Below, piece by piece: positions 49,581 to 59,196 of a DNA stretch of 64,000 nt. A program made the translations under genes and the position numbers. The notes below the pieces were generated by a model. The model saw nothing but the letters and a program-made list of their open reading frames with translations. It was not told where the DNA came from and ran no database searches. The stretch comes from an uncultured Myxococcales bacterium (GTDB taxonomy: Bacteria; Myxococcota_A; UBA9042): NCBI GenBank assembly GCA_937910235.1, contig CALENB010000329.1:871-64870 (forward strand), read 5' to 3'. The stretch's first letter is position 1. Each line of letters opens with the position of its first letter.

Positions 49581-52500
49581 CTACCGCCGCAGCGCCACGG
49601 CTGTCGGCGACTGCAACGCGCCGTCGATCAACGCCTGCACCGGCCCCTCATAGACGATAGTACCGCCCTTATCGCCGCCACCGGGCCCCAGATCGACCAG
49701 CCAATCCGCCTCCCGCAGCACGTCGAGGTTGTGTTCGATCACCACCACGGTATCGCCGCGATCCACCAGCTCGTGCAGCACGTCTAGCAGCTTGCGTTGG
49801 TCCGCCAAGTGCAGGCCCGTCGAGGGTTCATCCAGCACATACAGCGTCTCGTGGCGGCGCTGCTTGGCGAGCTCGGCGCAGACCTTGATGCGCTGGGCCT
49901 CCCCGCCCGACAGGGTGTTGCTGCCTTGACCGATGCGCAGATAACCGAGGCCGACCTTCTCCGCCAACGCCAGCGGCCGGTGCACCGTGCGCAAGCGCTG
50001 GAAGTGCGCCGCCGCCTCCGAGATGCTCATGGCGAGCACGTCCGCGATGGTGGCGCCACGCAGCTGCACCCGCAGGGTTTGGCGGCTGTAGCGCGCGCCG
50101 CCGCACGTCTCACAAGGCACATACACCGTCGGTAGGAAGCTCATGTCGACCTTGATGACGCCCGCGCCCTGACACGTCTCGCAGCGGCCTCCTTTCACGT
50201 TGAACGAGAAATGCTTGGCTTTGAGGCCGAGGATCTTGGCTTCTGGCTGCGCGGCGAACTGTTTGCGGATGCCGTCCCACACCCCCAGATAGGTCGCCGG
50301 GCAGGATCGCGGCGTGCGGCCGATGGGGCTCTGATCGACCTCGACGACGCGGCCGAGGCCCTGCAAGCCCGTGATGTCCGCGATCTCGTCGTCCACGGTG
50401 ATGGCCGCCGCGTCGCCGTGCACCAGCGGGCCGCCGACGCCGACCAGCAGGTCGCGGACCAGGGTCGATTTGCCTGAGCCGCTCACCCCCGAGATGCCGT
50501 TGAGCCGGCCACGCGCGATGGTCGCGTCGACCCGACGCAGGTTGTTGCGTCGCGCGCCGCGCAAGCTGATCCGCGGAGAATCCGGCGTCACAGCGCGGGC
50601 CTCATGCCGCGAGCGCCGCAACGTCGGGTCGGCCAACATCCGACCGGTCGGCGAGTCGGGATCGGCGAGCAGGTCGGCCAAGGAGCCGGCGTGTAGCACC
50701 GCGCCGCCGAGCTCACCGCCACCGGGGCCGAGCTCCACGACGTGATCGGCGCGCCGGATCGTCTCTTCGTCGTGCTCGACGACGATGAGGCCGTTGCCCC
50801 GCGCGATGAGGTGATCAAAGGCCGCCAGCAGCCGCTGGTTGTCGGCGGGATGGAGCCCGATGGTCGGCTCGTCGAGCACGTATAAGACGCCACGCAGATT
50901 GGAGCTGAGCTGGCTGGCGAGCCGAATGCGCTGGCTCTCCCCGCCCGACAGGGTCACCGCGCTGCGGTCGAGGCTCAGGTAGTCGAGGCCGACGTCGAGC
51001 AGGAACGCGCACCGCGCCGCCACCTCTCGCACGATGGGATCGGCGACAGCGGCGTCGCGGCTGCTCCACACCACCGCAGACAGAAACACCGTCAGCTGTT
51101 GCGGGTTCATCGCGCTCAGCTCGTGGATGCCTTTGCCGGCGACGGAGACCTCAAGCGCCTCGGACCGCAGCCGCGCGCCGTCACAGCTCGGGCACCACGC
51201 CAACCGCCGCCGCTCCTCCTGCTCGCCCTCGCGCAGCTCGCCCTCCTCCAACTCTTGCAGCGCGGCGGGTGTCTCGGCCTCCACCTTCGCCGCGCGCGCC
51301 GACTTGGGCCGACCCGCGATCGGCGTTGGTGTCTCGTCGGGCGCCATGCCCGAGCCCCGACAGTCTGGGCACCAGCCGCGCGTCGACGTGAAGCTAAACA
51401 GCAGCGGATCGAGGCCCGTCGCTCTGCGGCCCGTGGCGCTGCCGGCGGGATCGACCTCAAAACTGTGCACGCCGCTCGCCGCCGTGCGCACCCGCACCTG
51501 GCCGTCGCCTGCGTTCATGGCCGCGGTGATGGCCGCCTCCAGCACCTCGGGGCGCCACTGGCCGGGGCGCCCCTGGACCATGTGCGTCATGGCTGGCTCA
51601 GGAGCGAGCACCACCAGCACATCGTCGATGTCGTGGGCGACGTAGCGGCGCAGCGGCGGCACGGCGGCGATGGGACACAGCGCGTCATCGATATGAATCC
51701 AGGTGCGCCCGGCGCGCTCGGCGCGCTCGATGACGTCGCGATGAAAGCCCTTGCGGCCCCGCACCAGCGGCACCATGACGTAGAGCGGCGCGGTCGCCGG
51801 CAGCGCGGCGACCTGCAGCGCCACCTCCGCCGGTGTACGCACGGCCAGCGCGCCTTCGTGGGCGGCGGAGACCCGACCGCAGCGGGCGAACAGCAACCGC
51901 AGGTAGCTTTGGATGTCCGTCAGGGTGCCGACGGTGGAGCGGCTGCCGCCGCGCGTGGTGCGCTGGGCGATGGCGATGGTCGGCGGCAGCCCGCGCAGGC
52001 TGTCGACATCGGGGCGGCTCACAGGCGGCAGATATTGGCGGGCGTAGGGCGACAAGCAGTCGAGGAAACGGCGCTGGCCTTCGGCGAAGACCACGTCAAA
52101 GGCGAGCGACGACTTGCCGGAGCCCGACAGCCCGGTGATCACCGTCAGCCCATCGCGCGGCAGATCGACGCTGATGTTGCGGAGGTTGTGCACCCTGGCG
52201 CCGCGCACCTCGACGTGGCCCGGGTCGTCCAAGGCCTCGGCGATGGCGAGGTTCGGCCGGGCTGCGATCGTCGCCGCTGGCGCTGTAGCCCCGTCCAGAT
52301 GGGCCCGCAGCCACTGGCCGGTCGCCGTGGCGCCCAGCTCAGCGAGCCGTGCGGGCGGGCCCTGAAAGAGCAGCGATCCCCCGCCGGGGCCGCCTTCAGG
52401 TCCGAGCTCGACGACATGATCAGCGGCGGCGATCACGTCGAGGTGATGCTCAACCACCACCACGGTGTTGCCCGCCGCCACGAGCTTGCGCAGGCTGTTC

Positions 52501-55238
52501 AACAAGACCCGCACATCGTCGAGATGCAACCCCGTGGACGGCTCATCGAGCAGGAACAAGGCCTGCTGCGTACGCTGGCAGAGCAGATGCCATGCGACTT
52601 TGAGGCGCTGGGACTCGCCGCCAGACAGCGTGCTGAGGGGCTGGCCAAGCCGCAGGTAGCCGAGCCCCAGCTCGCACATCGCCAGGGCCGGGCGGGCGAG
52701 CTTGCGGTCGTCGGCGAAACGCTCGGCGATCTCGTGAGCTGTGGCGCTGAGGAAATCCGCGGCCGACATGCCGCGCACCTTCACATCGAGCACCTCGGGG
52801 CCAAAGCGGCGGCCTTCGCAGGCTTCGCACGTGACCCGCACGTCCGAGAGGAACTGCATGTCGACGACCTCGAGCCCGGCGCCGTTGCAGACCGTGCAGC
52901 GACCGCCGGGCCGATTGAACGAGAACATCGACGTGGTGTAGTCGCGTTCTTGCGCCAGCTCGGTCGCCGCCAAGCGCTGGCGCACGGCGTCCCAGAGCTT
53001 GAGGTAGGTCGCTGGGTTGGCGCGGCTGTTGCCGACCACGGCGGCTTGCTCGACGAGCACCACGTCATCGAGCCCGTCCGTGCCTTCGAGGCCACCAAAC
53101 GCTCCCGGTGTCTCCGTGGGGCGGCCGAGTTGGCGCAGCATGGCGCGGTGCAGGACCTCCTCGACCAGCGTCGATTTGCCGGAGCCGCTGACGCCGCAGA
53201 CCACGTTGAGCCGGCCGCGCTTGAAGCGCACACGGCCGCCCTTGAGGTTGCGCGCCTGGGGTTCGATCACCGCCAGCCAGGGGCTCCCGGCGCCGAGCGT
53301 CGTCCGCTCGCGGTCGAGCAGGCGGGCCCGCTTGGCGATGGTGCGTGACATGTCGCGATCGGTCGCCGCCCGCTCGCGCAGCGCCTCGCCGTGCGCGAGC
53401 GGCGCCGGCGCAGTCTCGCGGACGTGGCGCCGGCCGAGGAGGTAGTCGGCCGTCAGGCTACCTGAGACGCCGGCGAGGTCCGCTGGCGGCCCGGAGAACA
53501 GCAGCTCGCCGCCGTGTTCACCCGCGCCCGGGCCAAGGTCGATGAGGTGATCGGCCGCGGCGATGAGCGCCGGATCGTGCTCGACCATGACCACGGTGTT
53601 CCCCGCCGCTTTGAGGCGACCGAGGATGCCAAGCAGCCGCTCGTTGTCGCGCGGATGCAGCCCGACGCTGGGTTCATCGAGCACGTACAGCACCGAGCTC
53701 AGCCCGCTCGAGAGGGCCGTCACAAGCTGCACACGCTGTAGCTCACCGCCGGACAGGGTGCGACCCGGGCGTCCGAGCGTCAGGTAACCGAGGCCCAGCT
53801 CGCCAAGCAGCGCCACGCGGCGTGCCAACTCCGCGAGCGGACGCGCCGCCGCGCCACCGTCTGCCAGCCCAGCGATCCAGCCTTGCAGCACCTCGATGGG
53901 GGTCTGCAGCCACACGGGCAGCGCCGCGCCGGCGACCTGCCAACCGAGCGCCTCGGGCTGCAAGCGCGCGCCATCGCAGGCGGGACACGTCACATACTTG
54001 CGATACCGGCTCAGCAGCACCCGCACGTGCATCCGGTAGGTGCGGGTCTCCAGCCACGCGAACCACTCCCGCAGCCCCCAAAATCGGGGCGCGCCGGGGA
54101 AGGCCGTGACGCGTTCGGGATCGTAGCCGTCCATCAGCCAGCCGCGCGTGGCTTCGCTTAGGTCGGCCCACGGCACCTGCTGATCGATCTCGGCGGCCTG
54201 GCAAAACGCGTCGAGCTGCTCTCGCTCCCAGGTGGTGCGCTCCGTCGTCCAGGGCTTGATGGCGCCGTCGGCCAAGCTCAGGCCCTCGTCGGGCAGACAT
54301 CGGGCTTCGTCGAGCGCCATGATGCGACCAAAGCCGTTGCACGTCTCGCAGGCGCCGACCGGCGAGTTCCAGGAGAACAGGTTGGGCGATGGATCGGGGG
54401 TCTCGTGGTCACACGTCTCACAGCGCAGCGCCGATGACGCGCGGTGTCGAATGAGCGGCGCCGCCTTCTTGGCGCCGCGCGTTGGGGCGTCGGTCTCCGT
54501 CACCGCGTGGAGCCCCGTAGTCGCTGCGAGCGCGTCGCCCTCAAGCCACAGGTGCACCTCGCCGTCGCCGCGCCGCAGCGCTTCGTGCACCGATTCGAAC
54601 AGCCGGTCGGCTTCGGTCGCGTCGATCTTCAGTCGGTCGACCAGCACGTCGACCGGCTCTCCGGGGGTGAACGTCTCCAGCGGCGCGACTCTCTGATCTT
54701 TCCATTGACGATGCAGCCCGGCCCGCGCCAGCTCCCGCAGCGCCAGCTCGCCACCGCTTCGGAGCTGCAGCGGAAAGGTGATCACCGCGCGCCGACCCGA
54801 CGCGTGGTTGAGGAGGGCTTCCACCACCTGCACCGTCTGTAGTCGCGCCATGGGGCCGTGGCCATTGGGGCACGTCGGCAGCGCGGCGCTGGCGAAGACG
54901 ACCTTGAGGTACTCCGAGATCTCCGTCAGCGTCGCCACGGTGCTACGCGCCGCGCGCAGCCGTTTGCCCTGCTCCAGCGCGACGGTGGGCAGGATCCCGG
55001 TGATCTCGTCTGCCTCAGGGCGGTCCATCCGCTCGAGAAACTGGCGCGCGTAGCTGCTCAGACACTCGACGTAGCGGCGCTGTCCCTCCGCGTAGAGCGT
55101 GTCGAACGCGAGCGAGCTCTTGCCGGAGCCGCTGACCCCGGTGATGACGGTGATCTGGCGGAGCGGGATGTCGAGGTCAAACCCGCGCAGGTTGTTCTGG
55201 CGTATCCCACGCAGGCGGATGACATCGGGCTCATTCAT
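49581..55238 (-). CDS. uvrA: Excinuclease ABC subunit A, double-length (two fused UvrA units)
   Basis: Four Walker A motifs G(V/L)SGSGKS, two AEGQRR motifs, four LSGGE signatures, four LDEP Walker B motifs and CxxC zinc motifs; ATG 55238. Confidence 0.95.
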
Positions 55239-55391
55239 GGGCGGGCTCCGCGGCAGGGTCGAGCGGGACCTGTCGAGCCCGCGGCGCAGTGTGCGGCGGC
55301 GGCAAAAAAAACCCAACATACGGCAAAAAATCGGTCGCAAAAGCGCGCGTTTCGCCGTCAGAATGGCTCTCTCCAGCCATACGCTGTTGAC

Positions 55392-55471
55392 AATAAAGCG
55401 TAAAACAAAAGTGACAGGTATGTGACAGAAACGTGTTGACGGGGTGTCACAAAGCTGTATAGTCGCCCTCG
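55392..55471 (+). promoter_or_regulatory. Sigma70 stable-RNA-type promoter
   Basis: TTGACG (55436-55441), 16-nt spacer, TATAGT (55458-55463), GC-rich discriminator CGCCCTC; A-tracts upstream (55392-55410) in otherwise GC-rich DNA. Confidence 0.8.
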
Positions 55472-55571
55472 TTGAACGGCACTAAGGAGCTGATCGCACT
55501 GAGGGTCCACAAGACGGCATTCCTTCGCGGAGCGCAAGTCGGGGACACAAACCTCAAGGGGGGAGGCAGCG

Positions 55572-55607
55572 CTCGAAAGAGGCAAGCCAACCCGCGGTTC
55601 TTTGACA
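55572..55607 (+). promoter_or_regulatory. boxB-like hairpin and boxA-like (NusB/NusE antitermination) element
   Basis: ctcGAAAgag (55572-55581), then GGTTCTTTGACA (55596-55607) versus the rrn boxA consensus TGCTCTTTAACA. Confidence 0.7.
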
Positions 55608-55608
55608 C

Positions 55609-57156
55609 TCTGCAGAGCAGGTACCAGACCGATACGCTAGTTGAGCGTGCTGTCTCCAGGGAGACGACTCTTCGGAGTCGACTTCAAGAAGTGGCATGAA
55701 GCAGCGAGCCGGACGGGCCAAGAGAGCGAGGTATCCGAAAGGGTGCTCCGAAGGAAGGTTCAGAAAGCGCGAATCGAGGGAAGTACCGAAACCCATGAGA
55801 GGAGGGGGCGGCGCGAGAGAGCGCGAGGCCGAGAGGAGGGAGTCATCGTCAAGCAATTGGCGGCGGGTCACAAATCGAAGCGCGTGTGAAGACGTGACGT
55901 CGCCGAGAAGAGCGGGGAGAAATCCTCGGAGAGGCGAAAGCCCAAGAGAGGAACGGGTGTTGGGAACCGGGTAATACCGGTCCGGCGCAACGGACCTTGC
56001 TGATGCATGAATCCTCAGGGCCCCAATTTGTCGACACGTATGGCGGTCGGCGGCAAAGACTGCGGCGACGCAGTTCGAGACGTCGGAGAGTTGTGCGGGG
56101 CGGCACGATTAAGGGCGAAGAGGGCAGGATGCGCCGTGAGGCGTGGAAGGCTACAGCGAGGGGGAAACCTCTGAAGGGAGAAACCCCATGGACGCTTTCG
56201 GCATGAAATAGGGCTGAAAGGTGAAGAGCGGAATAAAGCGTCAAGAGGTTGAGAAAACCTGAAGGCGCAGCGGAGCTGGGCGAGGTAAACCCAGTGTAAG
56301 TCGCTGCTTTTCACTGATGGCGTCGAAGGGGCACCAAAGCCTAAGAGTGTGTGGTTACGGATCGACTGGGAGGAAGTCTGAGCGGCGTTGAAAGCGGGGT
56401 TAAAGCCGCGGAAGAGGCCGGTTGGGTGGAGTCGCTAGGTCTGAAAAGGTAGTGAGCGCGAGGAAAGCGAAGGGGGAAGCAGGGGAGCGGCCGAGAGGTT
56501 GTGAAGCTACGGAAACCAAGCAGAACACGCGTGGGACAGGGCGAACCGCTTGCGGGGAGTCGTGAACGCAGTCGCTGCGCGGACAGGTCGAAGTGGAAGC
56601 TTGGGGCGAGAGTCACAGGTGAAAGCGTCGAGGTGGAGAGTTGGACGTGTAAGCGGACGGCAGGAAGCTCCAGGGCGGAGAAGTGGAAGAGGTGGCGTTG
56701 AGGGTCAGCACCGCGAGGTGGGGGCAGGAGATGGCGCTGATGAAGCGGACTACAGGGGATGACGTAGCGGAATCGTCGAGGATAGACGCTGAACGCAAGC
56801 TGAAGGAACAAGAGTGGATGCCGAGGCTGAGTTGATTAGTCTCGGCAAGCCGGAGGGTGAGTACCGCGAAGGTCGGGAATGTGAAGGTTGTGCCCGCAAG
56901 GGTTGAGCTGGAGCGTGACTAAGGCCATGGCGGGTATACGAAACCAATGACGTACCAGGTCTCCGGTCTGAAGACGCTGAAGTTTATGGTAATGCGAGGA
57001 GTGGATACGCCGCAGGTGGTGACACAGGCGCGCGCAACTCGATGACGAAGAGTTCATGAAGGGCCAGTTGGCGCTAAGGGGAGACCCGAGGTGCAGGCTG
57101 CCCGAGTGAAGACACACGCTGAAAGGCGCAACTCATGGGCGGTCAGTTCTGCCAGA
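55609..57156 (+). ncRNA. Putative ~1.55 kb structured non-coding RNA of unknown class
   Basis: Own promoter and terminator. 5' TCTGCAGAGC pairs with 3' GTTCTGCCAGA. Many GNRA/UUCG hairpins, strong purine skew, no credible ORF, and no 16S/23S/5S/tRNA signatures. Confidence 0.8.
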
Positions 57157-57166
57157 CAACCGGAGA

Positions 57167-57204
57167 GACCCGGATCGCGCAAGCGGTCCGGGTTTTTTCG
57201 TTTT
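57167..57204 (+). terminator. Rho-independent terminator
   Basis: GACCCGGATCGC-GCAA-GCGGTCCGGGTT followed by TTTTCGTTTT. Confidence 0.9.
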
Positions 57205-57250
57205 GCGGCCGCTGGGTCTCGGTTGCGTCGTCGGCTGCGCCCAGCGTCCA

Positions 57251-57289
57251 GCGCGCCTTGTGCGCGGCGCGCCTTGTGCGCGGCGCGCC
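57251..57289. repeat. 16-bp tandem repeat GCGCGCCTTGTGCGCG x2.4
   Basis: Read directly: 57251-57266, 57267-57282, partial copy to 57289. Confidence 0.8.
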
Positions 57290-57345
57290 AGCCGCTCGGC
57301 TACGTTCTATTTCCGTAGTGCTGGGGGGAGTGCTAGAACCCAGCC

Positions 57346-59196
57346 ATGAGGAGCCCTCGGTCCACAACTCGCTGCGTCGCCTTCCCCGTGACTCGACTAC
57401 CCCTTGGTCTGGTGCTGGTCGTGATCTTGGGCCTGACCGCGTGCGCCCAGCGCCGGGACGTTGCGACAGCGCGGCCGGTCGTTGCGACGCCGGCTGACGC
57501 TGGTCCGGCGGGCGTCGTCGCACCCTCAGCCGTGCCCATCGCCGCTCGCCGGTCCGTCCGGGTGCTCGCTGCGACGCCGATTTTTCAGCTCGATCGCGTG
57601 GTCGACGTGAAGCTGGAGCTCGACGCGCAGGCGCTCGCCTCCCTGCGTAACCAGCCGCGAGTGTATACCCGCGCGACGGTCACGGTGGATGGCGAGCGCA
57701 TGATCGAGGTCGGCGTGCGGCTCAAGGGGCACCGCTCGTTTCGGGACCTGGGTGACCGACCGTCGTACCTGCTCGATTTTAAGCGCTTCTCACCCAAGCG
57801 GCGTCTGCACGGCCTGCGCAAGCTGGTGCTCAACAGCATGGTTGAAGATCCCACCCTGGTCCGCGAGGTGTTGGGCTACGAGCTCTTCCGCAAGGCAGGG
57901 GTGACCGCGCCGCGGACGGGGTACGTGCGCGTCACCGTCAACGGCAAACATCCGCAGCTCTACTTGGCGGTGGAGCCCATCGACAAGACGTTTCTGACGC
58001 ACCGCTACGCTAACCCGAAAGGCAACCTCTACGAAGGTGAGTACGGCTGCGACGTGAACCGGGAGGACGTGTGGGGTTTTGACCTGGACGCGGGCCGCGA
58101 CACCAGCCGCGCCGATTTCAAGGCCCTCGCGGCGCTGATGCCGCGCGGCGTGACGGTCGTGTTTGGCGATGGTCCCGGCGGCGTGGACCGCGAGCAGGTG
58201 TTGGCGTTCTTGGCGATGAGCGTCGTGGTCGGTGATTTTGACGGCTATGAGCACCACCACAACTACTTCCTGTATCACGAGCCGTCGCGCGATCGCTGGT
58301 CGATGATGCCGTGGGGGATCGACCGCGCGTTCTTTGATGACGTGAAGCCCTACGCCTGCGAGGGGCTGATCGCGCGGATGTGTTTTGCGGACCGCGCGTG
58401 CCGGGTCGCCTACGTCGCTCAGCTTCGCAGCGCTGTGGGGCTGCTGGAGGCGGCGAATCTGCCGGAGCGTGTGAGCGCGATCGACGCCTTGATCGGCAGC
58501 GTCGTCGCGGCGGACACCCATCCGCCCCGCGCCGCCAAGAAGCGGCGGAAAAAGCGGGCTGAGCTGCTGCGATTTGTGCGTGGCCGCGCCAAGCAGCTCG
58601 CCAAGTGGACCGATTGCCTGCGCGGCGGGAAGGAGCGCGATCAGGATGGCGACGGCTACGGTTGCATGGACTGCGACGACCAGAACCCTGCGGTTCATCC
58701 GGGCGCGGCGGAGGTCTGCGACGGCGTCGACAACAACTGCTCAGGGCAGGTCGATGATGCCCCGCAGTGCCCCTGCACGGTGAGTCAGATCGACGGCGTG
58801 CGGTTTGAGTTGTGCGACCTGCCGATGCCCTGGCTTGAGGCGGCGCGCTACTGCAAGGCCAAAGGCATGCACCTCGCGCGGGTCGACTCCAAAGCGCAGA
58901 GCAAGGCGCTGTATCAGGCCGGGCGGCGGGTGCGAAAGACACAGTGGTGGCTTGGGCTCAACGACCGGCAGGCGGAGGACCAGCATGTGTGGGACGACGG
59001 CACGAAGGTTGGCTTCACCCACTGGAAGAGCGGCGAGCCCAGTGACATGGCGTGCGGCGAGGACTGCGTCGCGCTCGCCAAACGGGCCAAGGGCAAGTGG
59101 TATGACAGCCATTGTGGGCTGCATCGGGCCTTCATCTGTCGGGCGCCAGACGCGGCCGCGGCGACGCCGGCGCAGCTCGTGGCCCCAGGCAAGTAG
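57346..59196 (+). CDS. Lipoprotein: CotH-family kinase, MopE-like repeat and C-type lectin domain
   Basis: LTAC lipobox; VGVRLKG..SF, LVLNSMVEDP..VRE, NYFLY...WSMMPWGID (CotH); DCDD..PAVHPGAAEVCDGVDNNC; WLGLND, WKSGEP, EDC, WYDSHC (CTL). Confidence 0.88.
   Translation: MRSPRSTTRCVAFPVTRLPLGLVLVVILGLTACAQRRDVATARPVVATPADAGPAGVVAPSAVPIAARRSVRVLAATPIFQLDRVVDVKLELDAQALASLRNQPRVYTRATVTVDGERMIEVGVRLKGHRSFRDLGDRPSYLLDFKRFSPKRRLHGLRKLVLNSMVEDPTLVREVLGYELFRKAGVTAPRTGYVRVTVNGKHPQLYLAVEPIDKTFLTHRYANPKGNLYEGEYGCDVNREDVWGFDLDAGRDTSRADFKALAALMPRGVTVVFGDGPGGVDREQVLAFLAMSVVVGDFDGYEHHHNYFLYHEPSRDRWSMMPWGIDRAFFDDVKPYACEGLIARMCFADRACRVAYVAQLRSAVGLLEAANLPERVSAIDALIGSVVAADTHPPRAAKKRRKKRAELLRFVRGRAKQLAKWTDCLRGGKERDQDGDGYGCMDCDDQNPAVHPGAAEVCDGVDNNCSGQVDDAPQCPCTVSQIDGVRFELCDLPMPWLEAARYCKAKGMHLARVDSKAQSKALYQAGRRVRKTQWWLGLNDRQAEDQHVWDDGTKVGFTHWKSGEPSDMACGEDCVALAKRAKGKWYDSHCGLHRAFICRAPDAAAATPAQLVAPGK

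Follow-up and report, generated by a model that had tools for sequence, protein, structure and literature searches.

A boxA-led gene for a large structured RNA in Myxococcota, the ends of which probably pair across 1.5 kb

Results

A stand-alone RNA gene with a boxA-type leader

The window analysed here is a 64,000-nucleotide (nt) stretch of DNA from an uncultured Myxococcales bacterium (contig CALENB010000329.1 of assembly GCA_937910235.1, positions 871 to 64,870 of the forward strand). Within it, positions 55380-57210 are a stand-alone gene for a large structured RNA with a transcription unit of its own. A promoter is followed by a leader of ~125 nt, a boxA, the 5' strand of an end-to-end helix, a 1.5-kb body, a 3' hairpin, the 3' strand of the helix, a tail and a terminator, in that order (Table 1). 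A preliminary description made from the letters had proposed that the two strands pair as a closing helix and define the mature ends of the RNA. The gene is single-copy in the 7.1-Mb assembly and differs in composition from its surroundings, with a GC content of 54-62% against ~69% in the flanks, a GC skew of up to +0.43 and an AT skew of about +0.3. Its body is 65% purine and has collinear conserved patches in relatives.

A protein-coding reading was rejected. Open reading frames (ORFs) on the + strand of the interval reach at most 92 amino acids (aa), column variability has no lag-3 peak, and no 3-nt periodicity of conservation was found across the columns of the homologue alignment. Stop-free runs of up to 261 codons occur in T-poor relatives and are not conserved. 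Known RNA families, among them ribosomal RNA (rRNA), RNase P RNA, transfer-messenger RNA (tmRNA), 6S, OLE, GOLLD, ROOL, HEARO and raiA, were rejected as well, since Rfam 15 gave no match at gathering score anywhere in the window. A search of 55200-57400 at E values up to 10 returned a single match, of 10.6 bits against a threshold of 398, and 20 homologous loci gave no Rfam match. Literature searches, with subscription journals and supplements outside their scope, found no description of this RNA.

The 5' strand begins 2 nt after boxA (55597-55607), as had been described. At the other end a correction is needed. The terminator stem starts at 57169 (CCCGGATCGC, a GCAA loop, then GCGGTCCGGG), so that the gap between the 3' strand and the terminator is 12 nt and not the 10 nt given earlier. 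As in other intrinsic terminators, a GC-rich hairpin stands directly before a U-run (57169-57198, with the T-run at 57193-57198). It is absent from a simple terminator-scan list and was recognised by reading the letters together with the fold.

The boxA-type element GTTCTTTGACA fits the motifs of M. xanthus (GCTCTTTGAAA) and E. coli (GNTCTTTAANA), the former being that of 16S and CRISPR (clustered regularly interspaced short palindromic repeat) leaders in the accessible text of 10.64898/2026.07.09.737519, which also gives the latter. It is the only non-coding site of the boxA motif in the assembly; the other pattern site lies inside a coding region. In the manner of a boxA leader, it lies near a promoter, is preceded by a hairpin and heads a long transcript without a conserved ORF, and a NusB gene is encoded in the genome. 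Homologues of the boxA type share a leader order of G-rich hairpin, GNRA-capped hairpin (CTCGAAAGAG type), boxA and 5' strand, and the stem of the GNRA hairpin shows covariation among them. For comparison with rRNA leaders we used the relative G087; the genome of the window (G000) is without an assembled 16S gene. In the 16S leaders of G087 a hairpin is followed by ..CTCCTTGAAAACTGGATAGCAGGCA.., close to the ..GTTCTTTGAAACTCTGCAGAGCAGGCA.. of the family of non-coding RNAs (ncRNAs) described here. The tail of the RNA, CAACCGG... (57157-57168), contains the complement of the CGGTT with which boxA is bordered on its 5' side (55594-55599).

The two ends pair in the window and in homologues

The two strands read TCTGCAGAGC (55609-55618) and GTTCTGCCAGA (57146-57156). 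Aligned antiparallel, they form 10 base pairs (bp) with one bulged C, which is ambiguously 57152 or 57153, and one G-U pair (G55617 with T57147), in agreement with the letters and the pairing first described. The minimum free energy (MFE) fold of the whole window RNA holds exactly this 10-bp helix. An inward extension by GACCG and CGGTC had also been proposed. The letters are present, and the candidate 5-bp pairing would sit across an 8 x 1 internal loop from the closing helix; the pairing itself is unverified, being left out of the window MFE and not formable in the relative L004. It gets no test from the relative L002, where both segments are unchanged. Energies computed for the long 44 x 45-nt end windows are partly spurious, and in clade f7 of the homologues a local hairpin with CGG/CCG to CAG/CTG covariation rivals the predicted long-range extension. 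The 5' strand contains the palindrome CTCTGCAGAG, which was considered as a dimerisation site; this was rejected, as other clades do not conserve it.

BLAST detected collinear patches of the gene (leader, core and 3' part) in 33 of 107 genomes from its class, some of which carry two to three copies, and the homologous RNAs measure 880-1680 nt from leader hairpin to terminator T-run. The first comparison took in 26 homologues, and in each of them a pairing is possible between the 25 nt that follow boxA and the 40 nt that precede the terminator hairpin. The distance from boxA to the 5' strand is 0-4 nt, and that from the 3' strand to the hairpin is 2-14 nt. At these two places the letters differ by clade. 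Strands of the window type (GCAGAGC/GYTCTGC) are replaced in L062 by GGAGAGC/GCTTTCC, with a C-G to G-C swap, and in L006 and L010 by GCACAGT(TCA)/(TGA)ACTGTGC. Clade f7 has GGAG-ACAGGG/CCCTGT-CTCC (L084), with the variants CAAAGG/CCTTTTG (L083), TCAGG/CCTGA (L066) and GGAAGTC/GACTTCC (L067). The bulge of the 3' strand keeps its place and varies in letter, being C in L001 and L057, A in L006 and L010, and U in L076 and L080. The 3-4 outer bp on its far side co-vary as well (TCTG/CAGA, ACAG/CTGT, CAG/CTG, TTG/CAA and GTTG/CAAC).

The pairing was examined further by an alignment-free swapped-partner test, in which the duplex energy of each 5' strand with its own 3' partner is compared with the energies obtained after exchanging partners. 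Own partners gave a mean of -22.4 kcal/mol and swapped partners one of -15.7 kcal/mol (n = 26). When a single representative was kept for each of 15 clades, the observed sum of -345.1 was reached by none of 200,000 permutations (mean -240.1, standard deviation 16.5), and the own partner was the best partner for 9 of the 15. Addition of eight metagenome contigs, for a set of 35 sequences that keeps two probably mis-windowed ones, gave -20.7 for own and -15.2 for swapped partners, with the observed sum reached by 0 of 100,000 permutations. In MFE folds of whole RNAs (819-1618 nt) the closing helix was present in 13 of 17 homologues. The claim that the ends pair across 1.5 kb is thus borne out by a pairing kept through sequence change, and the compensatory changes that had been suggested as a check are found in the form of clade-specific strands.

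The helix surrounds a conserved structured core. Over the 188 positions of the core alignment (56147-56335), RNAalifold predicts 42 pairs, 25 of them with compensatory double changes. A covariance model of this core matched 26 of 29 sources, including clade f7, where BLAST had found the leader only; among the same 29 sources it gave no match in two rRNA loci or in L081. Across the phylum, 22 of 151 sampled genomes were matched, 12 of these in other classes. In a pattern scan of contigs most matches were due to chance, ~6 of 29 coming from records of Myxococcota or 'Myxococcales' metagenome-assembled genomes. Scanning of 28 oriented loci showed a strong hairpin with a T-run at the corresponding position in 20, and reading added 6 more; homologues whose 3' side is complete all have a hairpin and T-run at their end. 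As for a P1-type closing helix, then, 5'/3' pairing is kept through sequence change around a conserved structured core. On these grounds we regard the closing helix as very probably real and conserved.

RNA contigs suggest that the helix lies inside the transcript

The stretch is contained in 19 of 22 listed runs, and the RNA runs come from four studies (P2, P4, P6 and P7). The RNA libraries comprised 2-116 million letters, and one run per study was compared by its contigs only. Runs X20-X22 contain next to none of the sampled words and carry no evidential weight; the DNA runs X1 and X2 contain all sampled words of 55380-57230. RNA contigs cover 55485-56399 and 56372-57063 in X4, 55481-56257 and 56242-56844 in X8, and 56351-57063 in X17. 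X19 contributed pieces, together with contigs of relatives, the overlap of which is limited to the core and the conserved boxA/5'-strand piece; one of these contigs (record 3), overlapping boxA, reaches 118 nt upstream of it. With contig starts at 55481 and 55485, leader and body are continuous in the assembled RNA, and the 5' edge precedes the helix by ~125 nt. Contigs of the four RNA runs are confined to 55481-57063; an uncovered part proves nothing. That small environmental RNA libraries of four studies assembled this RNA suggests that its abundance is high; contig depth is a poor measure of expression, and contigs cannot map ends exactly.

The core motif was also present in at least 121 stretches of metagenome contigs, most of them 1.0-1.4 kb long and hence RNA-sized. 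From this size and from their coincident ends we infer that they are assembled transcripts. Among the matches listed, 13 of 14 whole contigs with boxA start 100-129 nt before boxA and one starts 78 nt before it; their first letters (CGCTAAGGAG type) align with window position 55480. Both strands lie inside L128, L144, L154, L161 and L162, which extend 31-93 nt past the 3' hairpin, to a point within the terminator stem or beyond it; L122 goes no further than the 3' hairpin. Since RNA-sized contigs span the leader and both strands and run into the terminator, the helix probably lies inside the stable RNA of these relatives, which would extend from transcription start to terminator with the closing helix internal. 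The preliminary view that the helix defines the mature ends is not upheld by either set of contigs. Neither is its hint at circularisation: no back-join on the window RNA was reported in the contigs, which are a poor test of it.

Relatives without boxA

Relatives from other classes carry the RNA with a terminal helix but no boxA. Read by eye, the 5' region of L088 complements a segment before the terminator over 11 bp, and that of L087 does so over 9 bp with one mismatch. Promoters of these other-class genes are sigma-54-like (TGGCAC-N5-CTGCA; L087 ~1040-1075, L088 ~1060-1085, L089 ~830-900) and not of the sigma-70 type, and one to three DnaA-box-like motifs (TTATCCACA or TTGTCCACA) lie upstream of them.

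A boxA-less subtype of ~1.1 kb comprises L113, L132, L163, L180, L177, L179 and other metagenome contigs. Among the matches listed, 10 of its contigs have as their first base that of the 5' strand, at a CGACGTGAGTCGC-like motif, and in 4 the last letters are ..CCCTCAC, exactly where the 3' strand ends. Pairing joins the first 7 nt to CACGTCG, which lies close to the 3' end, and a second segment co-varies (CCGAGCCGT/ACGGCTCGG, TGAGTCGA/TCGACTCA and CGACGCGAG/CTCGCGTCG). The swapped-partner test was uninformative here, as 8,547 of 100,000 permutations did as well with 4 contigs only. In L113 and L132 a T-run follows 1-3 nt after the 3' arm, so the end-to-end stem may itself be the terminator hairpin. 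The 1097-nt metagenome contig L112 carries an exact 123-nt terminal direct repeat, for a unit of 974 nt, which is a signature of a circular or tandem template; its 3' arm and extended 5' arm (GTGAGGGCGACG) are 8 nt apart, and it is the sole such case among 79 loci read. In another metagenome contig, L172 (1139 nt), two differing core copies lie 489 nt apart and are joined right after the 3' strand, and this contig is probably a chimeric assembly of two related RNAs.

Features and surroundings of the gene

Table 1. Features of the RNA gene, by position in the window.
Feature	Position	Strand	Basis
Sigma-70-type promoter: TTGACG, 16-nt spacer, TATAGT	55436-55463	+	10/12 matches; 1 site vs 0.3 expected
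Leader, retained in the RNA, the 5' end of which is probably near 55480	55480-55596	+	RNA-library contig starts; kept in all boxA-type homologues
GNRA-capped leader hairpin just before boxA (CTC-GAAA-GAG, 55572-55581)	~55565-55588	+	conserved
boxA-type element GTTCTTTGACA	55597-55607	+	fit to boxA motifs
Closing helix, 5' strand (TCTG + CAGAGC)	55609-55618	+	letters, homologue pairing, MFE folds
Purine-rich, ORF-poor body	55619-57145	+	A 26%, G 39%, C 20%, T 14%
GACCG, candidate inner extension (unverified)	55627-55631	+	unchanged in L002, absent in L004, unused in MFE
Conserved multi-helix core junction	56147-56335	+	alignment A1 and RNAalifold; model R1 scores 192 bits here
Small hairpin CGC-TGAAAG-GCG	57117-57128	+	position of the family's conserved 3' hairpin (YYTCGAAGGG type)
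CGGTC, candidate partner of GACCG (unverified)	57140-57144	+	unpaired in MFE
Closing helix, 3' strand (GTTCTG, bulged C, CAGA)	57146-57156	+	letters, homologue pairing, MFE folds
12-nt tail CAACCGGAGAGA	57157-57168	+	CAACCG-like motif recurs in relatives
Intrinsic terminator: 10-bp stem and GCAA loop (57169-57192), then TTTTTTCGTTTT	57169-57204	+	fold of -23.3 kcal/mol

The promoter region can be aligned to that of L002 from 55405 on, at 82.5% identity. Between 55405 and 55450, TGTGACAG or GTGACAG is repeated, with an inverted TGTCACA, around the -35 hexamer; judged by their letters, these repeats are possibly a candidate regulator site. A second TTGACA occurs at 55389-55394, and A-tracts occur at 55304-55330.

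Short motifs recur in the RNA bodies. In 15 representative ones, CTCTG (CTCTGAAG-type motif) was counted 53 times against 10 expected, CTCTGAA 19 times against 0.8, and GAGAGGA 30 times against 6.4. The CTCTGAAG-type motif and the Shine-Dalgarno-like GAGAGGAGG may point to repeated modules or to protein sites. Internal GAAACCTCTGAAGG modules are similar to the segment that follows boxA (GAAACTCTG...).

On one side the gene is flanked, on the other strand, by a 1919-aa ORF with a double UvrA-like architecture (49581-55340, two sets of UvrA/ABC ATPase domains), which is divergent from the RNA gene; on the other side lies a CotH/lectin gene. A GC-rich unit of ~18 nt (GCGCGCCTTGTGCGCGGC twice) is duplicated in tandem at 57245-57290, between the terminator and the CotH gene. 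No neighbour gene is conserved, and Pfam matches in the flanks differ among 17 loci (LysR, Bax1-I, PD40, CDP-alcohol transferase, SOD, QueG and lactamase_B); 23 of 32 flank frames gave no Pfam match.

Discussion

In RNase P RNA and tmRNA, the ends of the RNA lie at a P1-type closing helix. The present RNA is like them in that 5'/3' pairing encloses the whole fold, and unlike them in that a leader of ~125 nt, the tail and the terminator extend past the helix; only the boxA-less subtype ends at it. With OLE, GOLLD, ROOL, raiA and HEARO, as described in the accessible parts of PMC12286853, PMC12054373 and PMC12968392, it shares being large, conserved, multi-helix, covarying and expressed. It differs from them in matching none of their Rfam models, in its greater length (~0.9-1.7 kb), strongly purine-rich composition and occurrence in Myxococcota, and in its boxA leader. 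CRISPR arrays likewise have a boxA near the promoter of a long untranslated transcript (accessible parts of 10.64898/2026.07.09.737519 and 10.1101/091223), but they and other non-rRNA Nus targets are without a closing helix that starts right after boxA.

The closest parallel in layout is offered by rRNA operons, with their strong promoter, a hairpin and then boxA, an upstream arm by boxA and a downstream arm more than 1 kb later. According to the accessible text of PMC4807359, boxA bound by NusB/E is modelled there as tethered to the elongating polymerase through SuhB, NusA and NusG. In contrast to rRNA stalks, the present stem is short (10-15 bp with bulges), its gene has no Rfam rRNA match, the leader and both arms are apparently kept, and the gene's own terminator stands directly after the downstream arm. 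What is new here is the combination of an rRNA-operon-style boxA with an end-to-end stem on a giant ncRNA outside the Rfam families. We think it reasonably probable that the closing helix is the end-tying stem of a large, highly structured and highly expressed ncRNA outside described families.

Our analysis leads from the complementarity kept through change, the structured core, the expression, the boxA motif and the NusB gene to a mechanism of Nus-factor-assisted closure during transcription, which we favour in its full form with some reserve. NusB/S10 on boxA would remain attached to the polymerase throughout elongation, as happens in rRNA operons, and would shield the 1.6-kb untranslated transcript from Rho. 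The tether would keep the 5' strand close to the RNA exit until, 1.5 kb further on, the 3' strand has emerged. The end-to-end stem would then form co-transcriptionally just before termination, locking the body in one enclosed fold. With leader and 3' strand both kept, the stem would act as an architectural clamp within the stable RNA and not as a cleavage site.

Several observations weigh against this account, some against the helix and some against its proposed role. In the window sequence alone, the match between the ends is within chance and not significant: the end-window duplex comes to -26.5 kcal/mol, where shuffled 3' windows give -19.2 +/- 3.6 (z = -2.0), and 8 of the 200 shuffles, like 9 of the 95 interior windows, are no worse. 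The caution first attached to the pairing, that an imperfect 10-bp match can arise by chance, was therefore fair. Evidence for the helix is thin inside the window's own genus. The closest relative, L002, has a T.T mismatch that weakens the outer 4 bp (TCTG/CAGA), and L004 is without these outer 4 bp and keeps 7 bp only, a T-to-C change there turning the G-U pair into G-C. In the swapped-partner test, L001, L002, L004 and L062 rank poorly, with 6-9 of 18-23 swapped partners doing equally well, because many clades share GCTCTGC. Among the 17 whole-RNA folds, the MFE is without end-to-end pairs in L004, L062 and L070, and L061 pairs differently. MAFFT leaves the strands of the clades out of register (L083, L066 and L067), so no column-wise covariation statistic of the R-scape type could be had, and in the f7 alignment A2 a double change is seen in just 1 of the 10 pairs chosen. 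In both X4 and X17 the contigs break off at precisely 57063, without a loose end and 83 nt short of the 3' strand. This weakly hints at a stable RNA without the 3' strand in the window's species; the stop may reflect a processing site, a block to reverse transcription or a contig filter. Nus binding, tethering and the timing of stem formation are things we infer from the anatomy. Finally, boxA is not needed for closure as such, because relatives of other classes close without it; it is an add-on of the window's class and not a requirement.

Chance complementarity without function would fit these weak single-sequence statistics, and also the ready pairing of the CTCTGCAGAG palindrome with related motifs. 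We nevertheless hold it to be extremely improbable, given that the sum of own pairs is never reached by swapped pairs in either set of permutations (0 of 200,000 and 0 of 100,000), that the same two places pair with different letters by clade, and that 13 of 17 whole-RNA folds contain the helix. If the helix is real, it might still serve as an rRNA-style processing stalk, in which an RNase III-like cut removes the boxA leader and the trailer and leaves the ends in or by the stem. Hairpin, boxA, upstream arm, long body and downstream arm copy the layout of an rRNA operon; the 57063 stop in two RNA studies would fit 3' trimming, as a weak hint; and among the matches listed, 10 boxA-less contigs start at the 5' strand and 4 end at the 3' strand. 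The RNAs that do carry boxA argue the other way: RNA-library contigs join leader to body (55481-56257 and 55485-56399), the relative's contig in X19 reaches 118 nt upstream of boxA, 13 of the 14 boxA-type whole contigs listed start 100-129 nt before it, and five of those examined contain both strands. An RNase III substrate offers about two turns of nearly continuous duplex. Here the flanks pair over a long range, as they would in a stalk, but the duplex is merely 10 bp with a bulge and so falls short of that length, and the ends probably do not lie at the stem either. Maturation of the RNase III type, at which the preliminary description had hinted, is for these reasons unlikely.

The position of the stem also lends itself to a release switch, by which the 3' strand and tail would pair just after boxA and at its 5' edge, stripping off the Nus factors for termination. 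The spacings agree with this (in every case 2-14 nt from 3' strand to terminator hairpin and 0-4 nt from boxA to 5' strand), as do the pairing of boxA with the purine-rich 3' tail in the MFE folds of L001, L002, L006, L084 and L067 and the recurrence in relatives of the CAACCG-like tail complementary to the edge of boxA. Set against this, the tail motif is missing or different in clade f7 (L071 and L084), and boxA is invariant, which puts its pairing beyond a covariation test. We also know of no established need for an active release of rRNA-type antitermination complexes at intrinsic terminators, and rate the switch as quite unlikely. Use of the stem as a ligation platform that aligns the ends for circularisation is suggested by L112, with its terminal direct repeat, 974-nt unit and arms 8 nt apart; this is 1 of 79 metagenome loci read, of the other subtype, and perhaps a tandem gene or an assembly cycle. 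On the window RNA no joint was reported in the contigs, and its stem is flanked by the 125-nt leader and the terminator hairpin, so that such a platform has very little to recommend it there.

The boxA-led and boxA-less RNAs could be joined in a wider reading, which we consider doubtful though worth stating: the end-to-end stem would be the hallmark of a phylum-wide family of very abundant RNAs of 0.9-1.7 kb, wired into transcription in two ways. In the window's class, a Nus complex would carry the 5' arm to the 3' arm before a separate terminator. In boxA-less RNAs such as L113 and L132, the stem spanning 1 kb would itself be the terminator, and L112 would represent a circular or tandem 974-nt form.

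To our knowledge, bacterial ncRNAs above 1 kb other than rRNA are very rare, and each new class of large ncRNA (OLE, GOLLD and ROOL) has opened new structural biology. It is the conservation across the phylum and the structure of an RNA of more than 1 kb that make the present finding matter. Its layout also provides a simple test bed for the question whether boxA-bound Nus factors mainly serve to hold the 5' arm at the polymerase, as one arm lies 2 nt past boxA, its partner lies 12 nt before the terminator, and no ribosome assembly confounds the outcome. If Nus-factor-assisted closure holds true, the rRNA 'looping chaperone' would here be put to a non-ribosomal use for the first time.

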